A DNA stretch of 12,499 bases from Candidatus Micrarchaeota archaeon (lineage in GTDB: Archaea > Micrarchaeota > Micrarchaeia > Anstonellales > Anstonellaceae), in assembly GCA_043810635.1 (NCBI GenBank), contig JBDRNY010000055.1, forward strand, positions 1 to 12,499. The letters run 5' to 3'. The notes beneath the pieces were generated by a model, which was not told the origin of the DNA, searched no databases, and worked only from the letters and a program-made list of their open reading frames with translations. Shown here piece after piece: positions 1,565 through 8,532 of this stretch. Position numbers and translations under genes: made by a program. How positions within the stretch are numbered: position 1 is the first letter of the stretch; each line of letters opens with the position of its first letter.

Positions 1565-2434
1565 ATGGAAAAGAATTTGATGAACAGGCGGAGCTTTATA
1601 AGAAAATGCGTTTTGCTTGCGCCTGCTTTAGTTTTTGGGCCAAAGCTGATTGAGAACCGCGCTTATGCAAGAAGTTATACAAGAAAGGAAGTTGAAAAAA
1701 TTCAGCCAAAAATTAAGGGGGAGATTGCGCTTTTGCTTGCCCAAGGGGAGAGAGTTAGGCTGAAAATGAAAAAAGAGGGGGGAAGTTCAAGGGCCTGGAA
1801 TTTTTTTGATAATCTGGATTCATATATTAAAGATACTTTTGAGGATGTTCTGATAAGCCTGAAGCATTTTGAGGAAAATGAAAAGCATGAGATATTTGAT
1901 ATTGAAAATGCTGAGGGGGTGAGGGTTGTTGGCCAAAAAACCATGCAAATTGAGAGCCTTATTTTTGAATTTGTAAATAATGAGAGGGCAAAAAGAGGGG
2001 TGCGTAAACTTGTATATGATGAGAAATTATCAGAAATTTCAAGAGGGCATGCTGAAGATATGGCAAAAAACTTTTTTTACTCCCATATAAATTTGAAAAG
2101 GCAGGATGTGACTGATAGGGCGCGGGCCGCGGGATATGATACAAAAAGAACTGTCAACGGGCTTGTATTTTATGGTGTTGGGGAAAATATTGCAAATGCC
2201 AAAACAGGCAAAGTTTTTGGGAGAGGTTATGTTGAAGATACCCAAGCAAATGTTTCGTGGGAATTTACAAGAACATGGATGGAGAGCCGCGGACATAGGG
2301 AAAATCTGCTAAATTCAATATATTCAAAAACAGGGATAGGGGTTGCAAAGGAGTATTCTTTATATTATGAGGTTTTTGACGGGCTTTTTATTGAAAATGG
2401 CTCAAACTACAAAGGAGTGCAGAATTTCTGGTAA
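1565..2434 (+). CDS. Secreted CAP (SCP/PR-1/YkwD-like) domain protein with twin-arginine signal peptide
   Basis: The N-terminus NRRSFIRK-hydrophobic-AYA is Tat-like. CAP motifs: VNNERAKRG, HAEDMA..FYSH, GENIA, WMESRGHRENLL, GIGVA, VQNF. Confidence 0.88.
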   Translation: MEKNLMNRRSFIRKCVLLAPALVFGPKLIENRAYARSYTRKEVEKIQPKIKGEIALLLAQGERVRLKMKKEGGSSRAWNFFDNLDSYIKDTFEDVLISLKHFEENEKHEIFDIENAEGVRVVGQKTMQIESLIFEFVNNERAKRGVRKLVYDEKLSEISRGHAEDMAKNFFYSHINLKRQDVTDRARAAGYDTKRTVNGLVFYGVGENIANAKTGKVFGRGYVEDTQANVSWEFTRTWMESRGHRENLLNSIYSKTGIGVAKEYSLYYEVFDGLFIENGSNYKGVQNFW

Positions 2435-2569: not shown

Positions 2570-3814
2570 TTATTTTTTTCCTTTCTTCTTTTTTCCTTTT
2601 TCCGCTTTTTTAGGTTCTTTTTTAATTTCAGTTTTTCCAATTTTTGTTTTTTTGTGCCCAAGCATCAAATAGCCGAGGGCAATTACAATTCCTACAAGCA
2701 CTATCAATACCGCAGTTGCCATCTGCAAATTAAATTCCTCCCCTTCTTTTATCGGAGAGATTGGGGCGGGGGGTGCTGGAGGGTTGGAGGAAGGCGTTGG
2801 GAAATATTCTGGGTATAACTCTTTCAAGGGCTTTTGTTGTTTTGAAAAGCTTGCTGTAATATTAAATGTTATTTCCTTGGATTGCAGTATTGCCCTGTCA
2901 GTGTCTGTTGTATAGCATTCAATAAACCAGTAATACTGCCTTTCTTCATCTGCTTCCCAAGTATCTATTGAAGCCAATTTTCCATTATTTGTAATTGTAG
3001 AATGGTTTTGTATTAATGAATTTATTATAAGCTTGCAATTGGCTTCTTCAGGAGCCCAATCCCCGTTTTGGTATATAAAAACAAATCTTGGATTGGAATA
3101 GTTGATTGTTTCATTTTCTTTTGGGGAGAGGATGGTTATGTTGTTGAATTTGTCAGGCTCAACGGCAATTATCCAAGTATCAGATTGAAATCCGTCGCAT
3201 GTAACATACCAGGGATAAAATACCCCTTTTGGAATATTTATTATTTCTATTATGCCGGTTTCGCCATCAGGAAGCTGGAGAGGGCCCCGCTCATTCCCCC
3301 TTACATTTATATAGCATTCTGAAACATTTCTTCCAAAATCTGTTTTATGGTAAATAAATTGAAATTCGATTGTAGTGTTTTTTGTTTTTAGTTCATGTGC
3401 GGGTGAAACAAGCTCTACTGTCGGCACGTTTCCTGAAAAAATTGTCTGCATATGAGAAGTTATGTTGTGCTCATCTTTTGTGCATTGAATATTCCACGGG
3501 TGAAAGCCTTTTTCATCAATCAATTCCCTTGGTATGGAAAGTGAAAGCTCGCCGCCTTCCAATTCTTCAAACTCTTTTGCCGTTCCCTCCACCTGAATAT
3601 CATCAACAAACAAAACACAATTCCACTCGTCAATGCTGGCATTTATTTTGAATACTGCGGTTATTTCAGTCCAATTTTCACCTGAAATATTATTCAGCAT
3701 ATAGCCGTCAGGGGGGGAGAGAATTTCAATTTCCAATGCTTCCGGAAAATAATCCCCTGCAAACAAGGAAAGGGAGAGAATTGCTATTGTGAGAATGAAA
3801 ATATTTTTTTGCAT
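2570..3814 (-). CDS. Membrane-anchored surface protein with three Ig-like repeats, Pro-rich linker, C-terminal TM helix and Lys-rich tail
   Basis: Signal peptide, then three repeats (I/V)x(I/L)(L/V)SP...C-x-(L/I)...W-x-(I/V)-x-C, then PTPSSNPPAPPAP, TM segment AVLIVLVGIVIALGYLML and a poly-K tail. Start placed at ATG 3814 (GGGTG SD-like motif upstream); GTG 3823 is the alternative. Confidence 0.82.
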   Translation of the reverse strand: MQKNIFILTIAILSLSLFAGDYFPEALEIEILSPPDGYMLNNISGENWTEITAVFKINASIDEWNCVLFVDDIQVEGTAKEFEELEGGELSLSIPRELIDEKGFHPWNIQCTKDEHNITSHMQTIFSGNVPTVELVSPAHELKTKNTTIEFQFIYHKTDFGRNVSECYINVRGNERGPLQLPDGETGIIEIINIPKGVFYPWYVTCDGFQSDTWIIAVEPDKFNNITILSPKENETINYSNPRFVFIYQNGDWAPEEANCKLIINSLIQNHSTITNNGKLASIDTWEADEERQYYWFIECYTTDTDRAILQSKEITFNITASFSKQQKPLKELYPEYFPTPSSNPPAPPAPISPIKEGEEFNLQMATAVLIVLVGIVIALGYLMLGHKKTKIGKTEIKKEPKKAEKGKKKKGKK

Positions 3815-4020
3815 AATAAACACACCCAGAATGTTAATTGGATTAAATGAAAAAGGGGCGGGGGGAATAAAAGAGTTTTGTTTTTGTTTGGAATTTTTTG
3901 AAAAATACGAGGGGCTTCGAGGATGATAGATTTATATATTAGAAAAGCACTATAAATTGCTGTCGTTTGTGCGTTTTTGCACAACGTTTGTTTTTTCGGG
4001 GTGAGAATAGTTCTTGCCTT

Positions 4021-4095: not shown

Positions 4096-4413
4096 TAGTG
4101 GTGAATTTCCGCTAAAATTTTCTTCCTTAAGAATTTGCGATAAAGTACTCGACTCCAGTCGATCCTGCTGGAGGGTACTGCTATCGGAGTACGATTAAGC
4201 CATGCAAGTTAGCTGACAAACTTTTGTCGGCGGCGAACGGCTGAGTAACGCGTAGTCAATCTGCCCTTAGGACGGGAATACCCTCGGGAAACTGAGGATA
4301 ATCCCCGATATGCCATCTATGCTGGAATGCTTGATGGTTCAAACCAATAGTGAATTGGAGCTATTTGGCCTGAGGATGAGACTGCGTCTGATTAGGTTGT
4401 TGGTGAGGTAACG

Positions 4414-5336
4414 ATGGATGTGATAGCTCACAAAAACTTAATAAATCTTCAAGCACCTAACTAGTTAGGTGGTTGGATGGTAAGGAGGGTAAATCTAAGT
4501 CTTCAACAAATGAAAAGGCTTTTCAGAACTTTACAGGCAAAAACAAATCGGTTCCAAAAGCTAGAACCCAAGGTTCTTGCAGAGAATTCTCAATACATAG
4601 CTGCTTTTAGGCTTGTTCTTGACATAACATCAGAAAAATTTGCTGTTCTGTGTGATAGAACAAGAGGCGCTATAAACAGCTTGGAGAGAGAACAAAAAAG
4701 AATTGATTTGAAAACAGCAACGCATTATGCAAACGTCATTAATAAAGAACTGGAAACAGCAAACAAAGAGCTGAATTTAAATGACATAGAACAACGATAC
4801 CAGAAATTTTATGGAAGAGCCTTAAAAGGAATTTCCCTTCTCTCAAAAGAAGCTCAGGTCAACTTTGCAAGAAATGGTGCAAAGCACGCCTTGAAAAAAA
4901 GAAAAGAGAATGGGAGGTATTATGAAGCATCAAGAAAAGGGATTGAGCAACAACGACTGACAGAACAGGAGAAAAGGGTTGCCAAAATCCTAAAAAAAGA
5001 AAAGATTCCTTTTGAAACACATAAATTCATTTGTGGAGAAAATGCAGATATCTACATAAAAAAGGAGCCGCCTTTTGTTGTAGGCTGCAAATGTGCAAAA
5101 AACGTTAGAAATATAACGGAACATGCACGAAGACTGATGTACCAAGCTTACCGTATTAAATCCAACCAAAATGCGAGATATGTTGCAGTAATAAGCAACT
5201 CCGAAGGGACACTTAAGAAAAAAGATGTCCCGATGGGAGCGATCAGATTGCTCGATGAAATCTGTGATGGTTATTTTTTTGATGAAAACCTTGAAGATAT
5301 TATTAAGATGGTGAAAAGCTAGCACATTCAGTATAA
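4414..5336 (+). mobile_element. 16S intron 1 (923 nt, BHB type, after ~E. coli 265, helix 11 loop), ORF-containing
   Basis: Terminal stem 4415-4428/5317-5330 (13 of 14 paired), relaxed central helix gtaa/gtat, bulges cga and aag. The splice gives GGTGAGGTAACG|GCTCACC. Confidence 0.92.
4477..5322 (+). CDS. Intron-encoded XRE-type HTH + PD-(D/E)xK (Vsr/DUF559-like) putative homing endonuclease
   Basis: HTH-like segment YIAAFRLVLDITSEKFAVLCDRTRGAINSLE. Nuclease-like segment LTEQEKRVAKIL...ADIYI...VVGCK. Clearly similar to the 7324-8070 ORF. Confidence 0.75.
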   Translation: MVRRVNLSLQQMKRLFRTLQAKTNRFQKLEPKVLAENSQYIAAFRLVLDITSEKFAVLCDRTRGAINSLEREQKRIDLKTATHYANVINKELETANKELNLNDIEQRYQKFYGRALKGISLLSKEAQVNFARNGAKHALKKRKENGRYYEASRKGIEQQRLTEQEKRVAKILKKEKIPFETHKFICGENADIYIKKEPPFVVGCKCAKNVRNITEHARRLMYQAYRIKSNQNARYVAVISNSEGTLKKKDVPMGAIRLLDEICDGYFFDENLEDIIKMVKS

Positions 5337-5558
5337 GCTCACCAAGCCGATAATCAGTAGGGGCAATGGGAGTTGGAGCCCCCAGAAGGGCACTGAGACA
5401 AGGGCCCTAGTCCTACGGGATGCAGCAGGCGCGAAACCTTTGCAATGCGCGAAAGCGTGACAGGGGAACTCCGAGTGATAGAGGCATCATGTTTCTATCT
5501 TTTTGTCAATCCAAAAAGTTGGCAGAATAAGATCTGGGTAAGACTAGTGCCAGCCGCC

Positions 5559-5592
5559 ATGCGCGTGAGTTTTCGCACGCACGGCACGGTAC
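5559..5592 (+). other. 16S intron 2 (34 nt hairpin, BHB type, after ~E. coli 526, 530 loop)
   Basis: Interrupts GTGCCAGCCGCC|GCGGTAA. Helix gccg/cggt, bulges cca and acg, internal hairpin 5560-5581. Confidence 0.9.
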
Positions 5593-5848
5593 GCGGTAAT
5601 ACTAGCAGAGCGAGTGGTATCCACGAATATTGGGTCTAAAGAGTCCGTAGCGGGCCGGTTAAGTCCACTGTGAAATCCAACAGCTCAACTGTTGGGCGTG
5701 CAGTAGATACTGACTGGCTTGGGAGTGGGGGAGGTCAGGAGTACTTGCGGGGTAGTGGTAAAATACTGTAATCCTGCAAGGACTACCAGTGGCGAAGGCG
5801 CCTGACCAAAACACGTCCGACCGTGAGGGACGAAGGCTAGGAGAACGA

Positions 5849-5983
5849 ACTAGAATGGAGGACAATTTTTTATAGTGCGCAAAATTTGATGAGGATGCAA
5901 GTATCTAACAATCTGTTTATACGGGTTGCGAATGCTACATTGCATTCTGAAAATAATGCAAACAACTTCCATTTTTGGTTCAA
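5849..5983 (+). other. 16S intron 3 (135 nt, BHB type, after ~E. coli 781), no ORF, contains box C/D-like motifs
   Basis: Helix gaac/gttc, bulges gaa and aaa, stem 5850-5861/5966-5977. The splice gives GAACGA|ATCGGATTAG. Confidence 0.92.
5886..5950 (+). ncRNA. Candidate intron-encoded box C/D (kink-turn) small RNA
   Basis: tTGATGA (5886-5892) and CTGA (5947-5950) are 65 nt apart end to end. The internal gtatctaa is antisense to 16S ttagatac. C'/D' boxes are not clearly defined. Confidence 0.45.
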
Positions 5984-5995
5984 ATCGGATTAGAT

Positions 5996-6025
5996 ATGCC
6001 ATCAAAAGTTTCGATGGCACTAAAA
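5996..6025 (+). other. 16S intron 4 (30 nt hairpin, BHB type, after ~E. coli 793)
   Basis: Helix ttag/ctaa, bulges ata and aaa, stem tgccatc/gatggca. The splice gives GGATTAGAT|ACCCGAG. Confidence 0.94.
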
Positions 6026-6156
6026 ACCCGAGTAGCCCTAGCAGTAAATTATGCAGACTGTGGTGTTGCCTGAACTTCGGGTTCAGGCAGTGCTGTAGCG
6101 TAGGTGTTAAGTCTGCCACCTGGGGAGTACGGCCGCAAGGTTGAAACTTAAAGGAA

Positions 6157-6836
6157 AAAGCGGAAGCAACATTTTTTCAATAATTCTCAATAAATAACGA
6201 CTGGAAAGTTACCCTTTGACTTCATTTATAAATGAAGTTTGAGATAGCTTTTCATGAATGAAAAACTGTGTTATTTATTGGGGGCCTTAAGAGACGGAAA
6301 TTTCGATGTGAGAAAAGGAAAAAACTACGAGCTAAGGATTTACCAGAATGAAGTTCAGTGGTTAACAGAAATTGCAGAAATTCTTTTTGATTTGTTTAAA
6401 ATTAAAGCAAAAATCAGAGGGAATCTTCTTCGCTTAAACAACAAAAAAGTTGTGAGCAAGATACTCTCAATTTCTGAATACATAAAACCGCAGGAACACT
6501 GGCAAACGCCGACTATAATCAGAATCTCCTCAGATGAGGAGAAGTGGTGGTATGTCGGAGGTTTTTGGGATACAGAAGGCGGCTTGCCTTTAAATCCTGA
6601 AATTGCAACTCAAAAATATATTTCCTTTGATCAGAAAAACAAGGAAACCTTGATTTTCATTCGAAACTTCCTTTGCGAATTTGGAATAAAGCCGACTAAC
6701 TTGACCTATACGGGAAAAGTTTGGCAGTTTCGGATAACACGCAAGAAGTGTATGATAAATTTCGCAAAAAATATACATTCTATTCATAGAACAAAATTAG
6801 ATAGGCTCAAAAGGCTCGTTGCTTCTGTTTCCTGAA
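6157..6836 (+). mobile_element. 16S intron 5 (680 nt, BHB type, after ~E. coli 919), LAGLIDADG-containing
   Basis: 13-bp stem 6158-6170/6818-6830, helix aagg/cctg, bulges aaa and aat. The splice gives AAAGGAA|TTGGCGG. Confidence 0.93.
6254..6835 (+). CDS. Intron-encoded two-motif LAGLIDADG homing endonuclease
   Basis: Motifs YLLGALRDG and YVGGFWDTEGG, with downstream ISFDQKNKETLIFIRNFL and WQFRI. TATA box TTTATAAA at 6225-6232. Confidence 0.92.
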   Translation: MNEKLCYLLGALRDGNFDVRKGKNYELRIYQNEVQWLTEIAEILFDLFKIKAKIRGNLLRLNNKKVVSKILSISEYIKPQEHWQTPTIIRISSDEEKWWYVGGFWDTEGGLPLNPEIATQKYISFDQKNKETLIFIRNFLCEFGIKPTNLTYTGKVWQFRITRKKCMINFAKNIHSIHRTKLDRLKRLVASVS

Positions 6837-6896
6837 TTGGCGGGGGAGCACCACAAGGCGTGGATGCTGCGGTTCAATTGGATACAACGCCGGGAA

Positions 6897-7053
6897 ATAT
6901 TCCAAACAAACTAAAAATGAAATTAAAAAAATCGCTTTCAAAATTTGCGTATCCGTCCCCAAGCCGGGGACCTCCGGAAAATTTTGAAGGTTAGCGACTC
7001 GTTTCGGCAACGGGTTGTTATTTTATGTTAATTTGTTTGTTGGAATACCCGAC
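6897..7053 (+). other. 16S intron 6 (157 nt, BHB type, after ~E. coli 978), structured, no ORF
   Basis: Helix cggg/cccg, bulges aaa and acc, stem tattccaa/ttggaata. The splice gives CGGGAA|CCTTACC. Confidence 0.93.
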
Positions 7054-7272
7054 CCTTACCGGGGGAGACGGCACTATGACGGCCAGACTAAAGATCTTGC
7101 CAGAGGAGCCGAGAGGTGCTGCATGGCCATCGTCAGCTCGTGGTGCGAACTGTCAGGTTAAGTCCTGGAACGAGCGAGACCCTCGTGCACTGTTGCTAAT
7201 TTCATCTCCGGATGAGATGCACACTGTGCGGACTGCCCGCGTTAAGCGGGAGGAAGGAGGGGGCGACGATAG

Positions 7273-8075
7273 ATATGCAGCTTGATCCGTAAAATTATAA
7301 ATGTTGGTCAGTATATATAGACCATGCCTAAATGCCATCTTGATAAAAAATCTCTGAAAACTCTTTACGAGGATTTCAAAAGAGAAAAAGATTGGCTGGA
7401 AGCCTTAATGAAAAAACCGCAATACATAGCAGTGTTGCGGATTTCGATGGGTTTGAGCCAGACTTCTTTTGAAAACCTTCTCAAAATGAGCAAAAACATC
7501 TACAAATACGAGAGTGGGAAGATAAAGCCGACTGAAAAAACGGCTAAAAAATTTCTTTCCCGCTTCAAGGCGCTTGCGCCTTGGGATGTTGTATTGCGAA
7601 ATTTTGAAAAGCTCTCATCTGAATCAAAGGGCTGGTTTGCTGCTAACAGCACCAGCATAAAAGCAATGCGTGCAAGGCAAAAAGGCGCGCAAACTCATAT
7701 GAGGAAAAGAGTTTTAACAACACAGGAAAGTGAAGTCGCAAAATGGCTCACTGAAAGAAGAATCAGCTATAAAGCAAACTGTGAAGTTGGAAAGGTTTTT
7801 GTTGACTTTTTCATTCCAAAAATGAATATTGTTTTGGAGTGCAAGAGGCTTAGCACAAGAAACCGAAGAGAGCATATGAAAAAAGTCAAGGAGGCAGCGT
7901 TTCAGGGCTACAAAGCCAAATTCTATAAAAAGAATGTAAAATTGGCAGTAGTCTTTGAAAGTCCGTTAAGACTTAATGAAACAGAAAGGCAAGAGCTAAC
8001 TGGACCATACGACTTTGTTTTTGAAAAAGTCGATGGTTTGAAGTATATTACAAAGGATCAGGCTGTGTAGTCGAA
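7273..8075 (+). mobile_element. 16S intron 7 (803 nt, BHB type, after ~E. coli 1197, helix 34), ORF-containing
   Basis: 15-bp stem 7274-7288/8055-8069, helix cgat/gtcg, bulges aga and aag. The splice gives GACGATAG|GTCAGTATG. Confidence 0.93.
7324..8070 (+). CDS. Intron-encoded XRE-type HTH + PD-(D/E)xK (Vsr/DUF559-like) putative homing endonuclease
   Basis: HTH segment YIAVLRISMGLSQTSFENLL..IYKYESGKIKP. Nuclease segment LTTQESEVAKWL...VDFFIP...IVLECK. TATA-like ATTATAAA at 7294-7301. Confidence 0.8.
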   Translation: MPKCHLDKKSLKTLYEDFKREKDWLEALMKKPQYIAVLRISMGLSQTSFENLLKMSKNIYKYESGKIKPTEKTAKKFLSRFKALAPWDVVLRNFEKLSSESKGWFAANSTSIKAMRARQKGAQTHMRKRVLTTQESEVAKWLTERRISYKANCEVGKVFVDFFIPKMNIVLECKRLSTRNRREHMKKVKEAAFQGYKAKFYKKNVKLAVVFESPLRLNETERQELTGPYDFVFEKVDGLKYITKDQAV

Positions 8076-8242
8076 GTCAGTATGGCCTGAATCTCTCCGG
8101 GCTACACGTGGCATACAATGCTCATGACAATGGGCTGCGACTCCGAAAGGGGAAGCTAATCTCACAAACATGAGCTAAGTTCGGATCGAGGGCTGAAACT
8201 CGCCCTCGTGAAGCTGGAATGCCTAGTAATCGCGTGTCATCA

Positions 8243-8281
8243 ATCTTCGATATTTCTCAAATGATTTATCGTAGAGTGAAC
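8243..8281 (+). other. 16S intron 8 (39 nt hairpin, BHB type, after ~E. coli 1363, helix 43 loop)
   Basis: Helix tcat/gtga, bulges caa and act, stem tct-cgata/tatcg-aga. The splice gives CGCGTGTCATCA|TCGCGCGGTGAATAC. Confidence 0.92.
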
Positions 8282-8532
8282 TCGCGCGGTGAATACGTCC
8301 CCGCTCCTTGCACACACCGCCCGTCAAGTCACCCAAACAGGGTTTTGGTGAGGCAATCTCTTCTTGGGATTTTCGAACCAGAATTTTGTGAGGGGGGCTA
8401 AGTCGTAACAAGGTATCCGTAGGGGAACCTGCGGATAGATCACCTCCAAAGAATACTTTTCTTTGAATTAAGAGAAGGATTTACTTTGAGTTGAGTAATA
8501 CACTTATGTGTAACGCAAGGAAAGGAAAAACT

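Follow-up and report, generated by a model that had tools for sequence, protein, structure and literature searches.

The 12,499-nt stretch of archaeal DNA analyzed here (Candidatus Micrarchaeota archaeon, assembly GCA_043810635.1, contig JBDRNY010000055.1; hereafter the window) raises the question of what kind of protein is encoded by two long introns of its 16S rRNA gene, and whether that protein drives the mobility of its own intron. An initial annotation, made from the sequence alone, had described the two open reading frames (ORFs) as homologs that combine an XRE-type helix-turn-helix (HTH) region with a PD-(D/E)xK nuclease domain, assigned their host introns to the bulge-helix-bulge (BHB) class, and proposed them as a new family of archaeal homing endonucleases. 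Our analyses reproduced the lengths, coordinates and intron numbers of both ORFs and lead us to regard ORF1 and ORF7 as intron-encoded members of an undescribed HTH + PD-(D/E)xK family that are likely to be homing endonucleases. The two ORFs and their introns are as follows.

4477..5322, plus strand: ORF1, 281 aa, in intron 1 (from the ORF list)
7324..8070, plus strand: ORF7, 248 aa, in intron 7 (from the ORF list)
4414-5336, plus strand: intron 1, 923 nt, E. coli site 265, contains ORF1
7273-8075, plus strand: intron 7, 803 nt, E. coli site 1197, contains ORF7

E. coli numbering was derived from a MAFFT alignment of an intron-free reference with the E. coli rrs gene; it returned the two sites named previously, 265 and 1197, with positions possibly off by 1 because the annotated rrs gene used is 1543 nt long.

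BLASTP aligned 214 residues of ORF1 and ORF7 with 23% identity (E=6e-6), and all of the motif pairs pointed out in the initial annotation fall within this alignment, which identifies the two proteins as homologous members of one family. ORF1 is predicted to comprise an HTH/helical N-terminal region (residues ~1-158) followed by a C-terminal PD-(D/E)xK-fold domain (~160-281), and ORF7 an XRE-type HTH region (~30-80), a helical linker and a PD-(D/E)xK nuclease domain (130-248). Each ORF occupies nearly its entire intron. The 5′ leaders of ORF1 and ORF7 measure 63 and 51 nt, and their stop codons lie 14 and 5 nt ahead of the 3′ splice site, so that the ORF ends overlap the BHB stem; a Shine-Dalgarno-like AGGTG motif is located 5-6 nt 5′ of the ORF1 ATG. 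As previously noted, neither protein contains a LAGLIDADG, GIY-YIG or HNH domain: Pfam detected no such match at E<=1, with the ORF of intron 5 serving as positive control. Neither ORF reached a Pfam or NCBIfam cut-off. ORF7 matched HTH_3 at E=7.7e-4 (19.9 bits, under the cut-off of 23), while ORF1 gave no HTH_3 match, and NUMOD families matched neither ORF nor any of 61 family members in Pfam.

AlphaFold2, supplied with alignments of 61 and 64 rows, returned models with a mean predicted local distance difference test score (pLDDT) of 95.0 for ORF7 and 94.3 for ORF1. In both models the N-terminal half is all-helical and the C-terminal domain is alpha/beta. We compared the models with known structures in a wide VIA-align search, for which the top 50 matches were listed per model. 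ORF7 matched Cdn1 (Z 11.3, root-mean-square deviation (rmsd) 2.5, 112 residues aligned), PspGI (Z 10.4), Can2 (Z 10.0), BstEII (Z 9.4), I-Bth0305I (Z 8.3, 91/98 residues) and Vsr (Z 8.3), and ORF1 matched PspGI (Z 11.4, rmsd 1.9, 108 residues aligned), Cdn1 (Z 11.0), Can2 (Z 10.7), BsoBI (Z 10.4), I-Bth0305I (Z 9.0) and Vsr (Z 8.0). Among the matches listed, every one with Z>=9 to either model was a nuclease or a Vsr-like domain. Foldseek returned no match at E<=0.001 for the whole two-domain ORF7 model, and its weaker rows were almost all PD-(D/E)xK nucleases. According to the models, the C-terminal domains of both ORF1 and ORF7 have the restriction-endonuclease-like core fold of the PD-(D/E)xK superfamily, with alpha-beta-beta-beta-alpha-beta topology. 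A homodimer prediction for ORF7 scored 0.28 against a mark of 0.42, a value that is uninformative either way on dimerization. With a profile of the family, the N-terminal part retrieved HTH structures of the XRE/MBF1/HipB/434-repressor type at 1e-4 to 1e-3, and the C-terminal part retrieved the I-Bth0305I catalytic domain (3r3p, E=9.7e-4) and T7 endonuclease I (1.4e-3). Models, fold search and profile matches point to the two-part architecture proposed from the start.

Word-indexed protein searches identified nine relatives of ORF1 with 43-47% identity (12 homologs in total at 39-47%) and 13 relatives of ORF7, 11 of them with 64-72% identity. A 24-sequence profile searched against 1.84 billion representatives retrieved 452 proteins at E<=1e-3, of which 157 reached <=1e-10 and 38 reached <=1e-30. 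Given that so many representatives are found while Pfam and NCBIfam cut-offs are not reached, the family is real and sizeable, yet unannotated in the libraries searched. Individual members do match Pfam models: HTH_3 in 24/61 (best E=1.2e-10), DUF559 in 6/61, and HTH_19 and HTH_31 as well. When nuclease domains were searched alone, DpnII-MboI was detected in 6/16, DUF559 in 4/16 and MTES_1575 in 2/16. PHROGs and PADLOC searches yielded only HTH-level matches and one marginal match (PDC-S69, 1.1e-4), and thus no evidence that the proteins belong with phage or defence families. In the ESM Atlas, the closest cluster (score 0.91) has 113 members, all of them archaeal and most often from Nanobdellota, a lead to a family reaching across DPANN.

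At the predicted active site, ORF7 carries E135, D161 and E172-C-K174, and ORF1 carries E165 and D191, with G203-C204-K205 where ExK is expected. A census of 114 family members whose nuclease domain is nearly complete found the helix-1 Glu (T-x-Q-E motif) in 113, the strand-2 Asp (V-D-F strand) likewise in 113, and a strand-3 Glu in 95. The complete E, D, ExK set is found in ORF7 and in proteins from a further 16S site, 1364 (see below), and with this set ORF7 is probably an active endonuclease. The site-265 clade consists of 13 full-length proteins with 39-47% identity and 38 invariant columns, among them the helix-1 Glu, the strand-2 Asp and the clade-specific E188, N189 and H216. In the profile alignment to 3r3p, the Glu and Asp of the family align with those of I-Bth0305I (the Asp being D196, mutated in the crystal) and E-C-K sits on E-V-N; the insertion that bears His213 of I-Bth0305I is missing from the family, and the column of Asp222 is not conserved. 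Because the His213 segment is absent, Asp222 is unconserved and ExK is present, the catalytic pattern is read as the classical E...D...ExK rather than as EDxHD/Vsr. Of the earlier description "Vsr/DUF559-like", a weak sequence affinity persists, but the catalytic part has to be given up, as the His and the second Asp of EDxHD/Vsr are absent.

To see where relatives of the two ORFs reside, we ran a six-frame hidden Markov model search of 401 genomes of the phylum, the own genome included, and classed matches at E<1e-50 as full-length. Some match at E<=1e-5 occurred in 56/401 genomes, mostly HTH-only or partial. Full-length matches were found at 14 places in 14 other genomes, in addition to ORF1 and ORF7 of the window. 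All 14 lie inside 16S introns, as determined by blastn against an intron-free reference, and Rfam detected SSU rRNA around each of the eight loci scanned. Eight of the 14 occupy site 1197 (reference 1195/1196), the site of ORF7, and the other six share a third site, E. coli 1364 (reference 1362/1363). By these alignments the family is present at no fewer than three 16S sites, 265, 1197 and 1364, which exceeds the spread to two unrelated sites suggested at first; site 1364 is represented by the six relatives and by a 39-nt remnant in the window itself. Neither these 400 other genomes nor a scan of genomes representing individual species yielded a further site-265 example, and a genome-collection scan with P0026 found no relatives. 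Among 12 metagenomic site-265 homologs, at least eight continue past the 3′ splice site, in all three frames, and end within the exon after 265, with tails such as ...AHQANDQ, ...TSKPITP... and, as an exact case, ...SVGAMGVGAPRRALRQGP. At site 1197, P0014 and P0017 begin in the preceding exon.

Relationships within the family follow the insertion sites. In a quick maximum-likelihood tree of 44 rows (16 proteins from the genomes, nine site-265 homologs, and 19 out of ~100 other single-module representatives), support by the Shimodaira-Hasegawa-like approximate likelihood ratio test (SH-aLRT) was 100 for the site-265 clade and 97 for the site-1364 clade, and all nine site-1197 proteins fell within a clade at 98. 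Hosts with full-length members of the 1197 or 1364 clade span about ten families of the class. Intron-free alleles exist close by: three genomes of the same genus have an intron-free 16S gene in which the surroundings of site 265 are identical to the joined exons of the window, and which near site 1197 differs from the window by one base. Signs of decay were also detected. An in-frame stop interrupts 2/14 full-length copies, and intron 8 of the window, 39 nt long and ORF-less, starts with ATCTTCGATATTTC and ends with ..GTGAAC, as do the 823-nt ORF-bearing introns at this site in two relatives of the same host family (L021 and L023). Because these termini match those of ORF-bearing site-1364 introns, we read intron 8 as having lost its ORF by deletion while retaining the BHB core, and it is probably a remnant of an ORF-bearing intron at that site. 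As far as genomic comparison can tell, the family displays the hallmarks of homing endonucleases, namely intron-encoded and site-specific orthologous clades in different hosts, presence/absence polymorphism, intact intron-free target alleles, and decay products.

The family extends beyond introns. Many representatives of 395-675 aa contain two to five tandem N-terminal modules followed by one nuclease domain (proteins P0039-P0058; locus L048, 3992-6013). Seven metagenomic loci of P0042 and its relatives contain no rRNA, and one P0042-type locus on a 307-kb contig lies between genes for TrkH, a PP-loop ATPase and ribosomal proteins S11, S4 and S13, with endonuclease V adjoining. The multi-HTH relatives of ~670 aa are free-standing chromosomal genes, and the intron-borne single-module clades are a subset of the family. 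The intron association of homologs thus holds for the full-length single-module proteins (14/14) but not for these larger relatives. A link by descent to the multi-HTH proteins, in either direction, would suggest a naturally modular, re-targetable architecture for DNA recognition.

We next turn to the introns themselves. BHB structures were fitted with the geometry of archaeal tRNA introns, that is, a flank helix, a 4-nt central helix, 3-nt bulges cut after nucleotide 2 and a second flank helix. At the exact homology-defined junctions of intron 1, helix A has 8 bp (TTGGTGAG/CTCACCAA) and is the rRNA's own hairpin stem, the central helix GTAA/GTAT forms 3/4 pairs, the bulges are CG^A and AA^G, and helix B has 8 bp; the insertion point is the loop of that rRNA hairpin. 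Intron 7, also at its exact junctions, has a central helix CGAT/GTCG with 4/4 pairs, bulges AG^A and AA^G, a helix B of 15 bp and a helix A of 2 bp. Intron 8 has a helix A of 8 bp and a central helix TCAT/GTGA with 4/4 pairs. The introns that house genes of the family all sit within an rRNA hairpin loop or next to one. A BHB was found at the predicted junction in 12/14 relatives and after a shift of 1-2 nt in the other two, whereas of 200,000 site pairs drawn at random from the window a fraction of <=2e-4 satisfied comparable criteria. In the eight site-1197 relatives the same pair of the central helix is A:T, G:C or C:G depending on the host, and helix B, the longer of the flank helices, stays complementary despite quite different sequences; these compensatory changes support the BHB structure. 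Rfam detected neither group I nor group II models, nor any other meaningful family, over 4100-8500 at E<=5. A check for group I introns is relevant because such introns have been reported from Micrarchaeota rRNA (PMC6125680), and we rejected group I identity on the basis of the Rfam result together with the BHB fits. Introns 1 and 7 are accordingly predicted to be BHB introns, as initially annotated.

The 16S gene that hosts these introns was located with the Rfam covariance model for archaeal SSU rRNA at 4152..8448 on the plus strand (RF01959, 875.8 bits, model positions 1-1478), and is the only 16S found in this 82%-complete assembly. It spans 4297 nt against the 1478 positions of the model, with insertions of ~2.8 kb in total. 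Using ~1.5-kb intron-free 16S genes of three same-genus and three same-family relatives as references, blastn defined the exon blocks 4152-4413, 5337-5849, 6026-6156, 6834-6896, 7051-7272 and 8076-8448. An 11-nt micro-exon lies at 5985-5995, between the 135-nt intron 3 and the 30-nt intron 4, and the covariance-model alignment revealed two mini-inserts. Taken together, the six exon blocks, the micro-exon and the two mini-inserts give eight introns. Besides introns 1 and 7 these are the following.

about 5559-5592, plus strand: intron 2, about 34 nt, no ORF
5850-5984, plus strand: intron 3, 135 nt, E. coli site 782, no ORF
5996-6025, plus strand: intron 4, 30-nt hairpin intron, E. coli site 793, no ORF
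6158-6835, plus strand: intron 5, 678 nt, E. coli site about 919, LAGLIDADG_3 ORF
about 6897-7053, plus strand: intron 6, about 157 nt, E. coli site about 978, no ORF
8243-8281, plus strand: intron 8, 39 nt, E. coli site 1364, no ORF

The ORF of intron 5 (6254-6835, 193 aa) matched LAGLIDADG_3 in Pfam at E=2.7e-10, so two unrelated endonuclease families lie side by side in one 16S gene; the BHB of this intron has a central helix with 4/4 pairs and flank helices of 4 and 12 bp. The insert of intron 2 lies within the conserved GTGCCAGCCGC/GCGGTAATAC region, is present in the same-genus loci L006 and L009 and absent from L008, and has a moderate BHB fit (central helix 4/4, flank helices 0 and 3 bp). 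In the relative with locus L023 (G228:C10), the 16S gene contains, besides the site-1364 intron, an extra intron of ~680 nt (about 1312-1992) near reference 1226/1227. Elsewhere in the window, a partial 23S gene (the first 1.1 kb of the large-subunit gene) occupies 1-1101 on the minus strand, divergent from and unlinked to the 16S gene, and the ~3 kb separating the two contain a 289-aa ORF (1565-2434, plus strand) and a 417-aa ORF (2570-3823, minus strand).

With respect to splicing, the genome encodes a homolog of the tRNA-intron endonuclease (PF01974, 70.3 bits) and the ligase RtcB (468 bits). The endonuclease homolog (G000:C75:1529-2017, L052) has one open frame of 425 aa with two PF01974 matches and appears to be a two-unit enzyme. 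The RtcB match (G000:C78:3032-4337, L053) is split over two frames, with model positions 1-340 in one and 336-426 in another; a frameshift, an error in the assembly or a programmed event may lie behind this split. Four metatranscriptome runs yielded short mixed-community contigs on exons only, with no cover of intron interiors (best run, 14% of sampled words). Among the joints listed from these runs, no contig bridged 4413/5337 or 7272/8076. Joints at 5849/6026, 6153/6834 and about 8240/8283 were detected; they may derive from spliced RNA or from intron-free relatives, either being possible.

In the scheme that we propose, the protein would be translated from intron RNA, and its HTH region would recognize ~15-30 bp of intron-free 16S DNA across the insertion site, which the nuclease domain would then cut. 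Recombinational repair from the intron-containing allele would copy intron and ORF into the cut gene, that is, homing. The tRNA-splicing endonuclease and RtcB ligase of the genome would remove the introns from pre-rRNA. Once a population is saturated, the ORF would decay and be deleted, and hairpin mini-introns would remain. We consider homing the likely and best-supported function because of the fold, the conserved residues and the genomic natural history. With some reserve we also favor a broader conclusion: that these proteins constitute a new homing endonuclease family joining an XRE-type HTH to an E-D-ExK PD-(D/E)xK nuclease, the first non-LAGLIDADG family in protein-spliced archaeal BHB introns, which has diversified across three or more 16S sites in DPANN-type archaea and is derived from, or ancestral to, the free-standing nucleases with 2-5 tandem HTHs.

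Several observations weigh against assigning a homing role to these proteins. Cleavage, homing and splicing are all deduced. Every sequence link to named nuclease families falls under curated thresholds, and only the top fold matches are discriminating because CheY-like receiver domains appear at Z ~7.5-8.2. Since the ~670-aa multi-HTH relatives are free-standing, membership in the family does not by itself imply homing. The nearest site-1197 relatives of the window in the quick tree belong to its own host family; with hosts spanning about ten families but the nearest relatives in the same one, the pattern fits descent with loss as well as transfer. In the active site, the position of the ExK Lys is Lys in 56/114 members and Thr in 26, and throughout the site-265 clade, in ORF1 as in its 12 homologs, G, N, S or A stands where the strand-3 Glu is expected; the ExK Lys is also missing from most site-265 homologs and retained in ORF1. 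Because its clade lacks the ExK glutamate, ORF1 is not secure as an active endonuclease. Either alternative residues (E188, N189 and H216) are in use in this clade, or cleavage activity has been lost. The proposal of a homing endonuclease family consequently stands on firmer ground for ORF7, with its complete catalytic set, than for ORF1.

The altered active site is also what gives substance to a different explanation, namely that the ORFs, and above all ORF1, are relics or domesticated derivatives of endonucleases that serve as DNA- or RNA-binding factors or maturase-like helpers, or have simply not yet decayed. For LAGLIDADG enzymes, a second function as maturases is known, according to a study of rRNA insertions (PMC11270868), and the apparent absence of the site-265 clade from the 400 other genomes of the phylum and from the species-representative scan would fit a relic. 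We nevertheless think such a status unlikely, as the 13 site-265 proteins are full-length and keep their 38 invariant columns, a pattern indicative of purifying selection on a nuclease-like site, and as ORF7 and the site-1364 proteins retain every residue of the E, D, ExK set. BHB splicing by a protein endonuclease, moreover, requires no maturase.

It is conceivable, too, that the nuclease-like domain acts on RNA in the manner of the Vsr-like RAP/FASTK domains, processing or protecting an intron-rich pre-rRNA. T. gondii mitoribosomal proteins are among the fold matches (Z 9.0-9.1), the RNA-binding protein FASTKD4 is described as Vsr-like (PMC11879112), and family members share a weak sequence similarity with ribosomal protein uS8. 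The uS8 matches are marginal (E from 7e-4 to 0.2), however, the N-terminal domain appears to be of the classic XRE type that binds double-stranded DNA, the clades follow DNA insertion sites, and presence/absence polymorphism together with ORF-less remnants is the signature of mobility at the DNA level, all of which makes an RNA-directed role highly improbable. To the last explanation, that a cellular HTH-nuclease family of restriction-like, repair or defence function came to lie in introns by chance and plays no role in their mobility, we give the least credence of all. It would accommodate the free-standing multi-HTH relatives adjoining ribosomal-protein genes and the weak matches of members to the restriction-enzyme families DpnII-MboI, MTES_1575 and HSDR_N_2, but not the confinement of all 14 full-length single-module homologs to 16S introns at just two sites in site-specific clades. 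PADLOC likewise gave HTH-level or marginal matches, and chance would not be expected to fill BHB introns time and again at one identical nucleotide across host families. Homing endonucleases encoded by the introns they mobilize remain the reading that we prefer.

If homing by this family is real, several consequences follow. The annotation of archaeal rRNA introns has been shaped by a LAGLIDADG-only picture, to judge from the accessible text of two studies (PMC4496867, PMC6125680), as has the view that group I introns bearing LAGLIDADG ORFs were the ancestors of BHB introns. BHB introns would instead constitute an open niche, colonized independently by different selfish nucleases. Many ORFs annotated as "hypothetical" would be explained, as would oversized 16S genes in DPANN genomes, which defeat universal primers and 16S-based binning. 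A compact HTH + PD-(D/E)xK scaffold with multi-HTH relatives would join the few natural long-target nucleases that are attractive for genome engineering, and the site-265 clade, with its conserved but non-canonical active site, provides a natural test case for the migration of catalytic residues in PD-(D/E)xK enzymes.

In the open full-text literature, with subscription-only papers outside the search, we found no description of an HTH + PD-(D/E)xK protein in archaeal introns, consistent with the novelty initially claimed. As far as the accessible parts of these sources go, LAGLIDADG was the only family that Pfam assigned to intron ORFs in a survey of Thermoproteales (PMC4496867); 21/39 archaeal group I introns examined by Nawrocki et al. 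had Pfam-matching ORFs, all LAGLIDADG (PMC6125680); and a study of rRNA insertions in the Candidate Phyla Radiation reported LAGLIDADG and GIY-YIG enzymes, one supplementary file of it containing no DUF559, HTH_3, Vsr or HTH_19 (PMC11270868). Two papers on Micrarchaeota genomes mention 16S introns or cite intron papers and, in the portions available, describe no intron protein.

Among known systems, the closest in architecture is I-Bth0305I, one of the Vsr-like EDxHD homing endonucleases that phages carry in group I introns and inteins (PMC3239194). Like the proteins described here, it is intron-encoded and combines HTH-like N-terminal modules with a C-terminal PD-(D/E)xK nuclease; its catalytic domain is also the best sequence-level PDB match of the family's nuclease domain (E=9.7e-4), with helix-1 Glu and strand-2 Asp aligned. 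The same source text describes the composite EDxHD motif (E, D, x, H, D) as common to I-Bth0305I and Vsr (PMC3239194). The loop with catalytic His213, however, is missing from the family, the column of Asp222 varies, and E-C-K stands where I-Bth0305I has E-V-N. The DNA-binding modules are NUMOD in I-Bth0305I and XRE-type HTH_3 here, and the present family lives in protein-spliced BHB introns of archaeal rRNA, where the EDxHD enzymes live in inteins or self-splicing group I introns. I-Ssp6803I, a homing enzyme of the PD-(D/E)xK type encoded in a group I intron of a cyanobacterial tRNA, shares with the present family the classical PD-(D/E)xK core and, on our reading, the homing function. It is a small, single-domain protein that lacks an HTH region and resides in a group I intron. 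It was absent from the top 50 fold matches listed for ORF7 and for ORF1. The I-Ssp6803I family is counted among six families of homing endonucleases (PMC6083498).

DUF559 and Vsr share a weak family-level similarity with our proteins, as reflected by DUF559 matches in 6/61 members and 4/16 nuclease domains (best E about 3e-4), by Vsr fold matches at Z 8.0-8.3, and by the name "very-short-patch-repair endonuclease" given by its source to the homolog P0021. They differ in that ORF1 and ORF7 themselves have no match, those of members (E ~3e-4 to 5e-4) being under the cut-off, and in that the family has an ExK lysine in place of the Vsr histidines and an added HTH region. The type II restriction enzymes PspGI, Ecl18kI and BstEII and the CARF-associated nucleases Can2 and Cdn1 superpose on the nuclease core over 108-116 residues (Z 9.4-11.4, rmsd 1.9-3.1). 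With identity of 10-17%, no common accessory domain and other biology, these matches indicate a common fold only. The LAGLIDADG enzymes of archaeal rRNA BHB introns, finally, are closest in lifestyle. Within the accessible text of the Thermoproteales survey, their ORFs also fill BHB introns in 16S hairpin loops and form site-specific lineages, with hairpin-only remnants at the same loci and a comparable inferred life cycle (PMC4496867). Sites 265, 1197 and 1364 lie outside the 13 loci listed there, namely 374, 548, 722, 781, 803, 901, 908, 919, 978, 1093, 1205, 1213 and 1391 (PMC4496867). The proteins predicted here would thus occupy the same type of intron as the LAGLIDADG enzymes, from which they differ in having an unrelated fold and catalytic mechanism.

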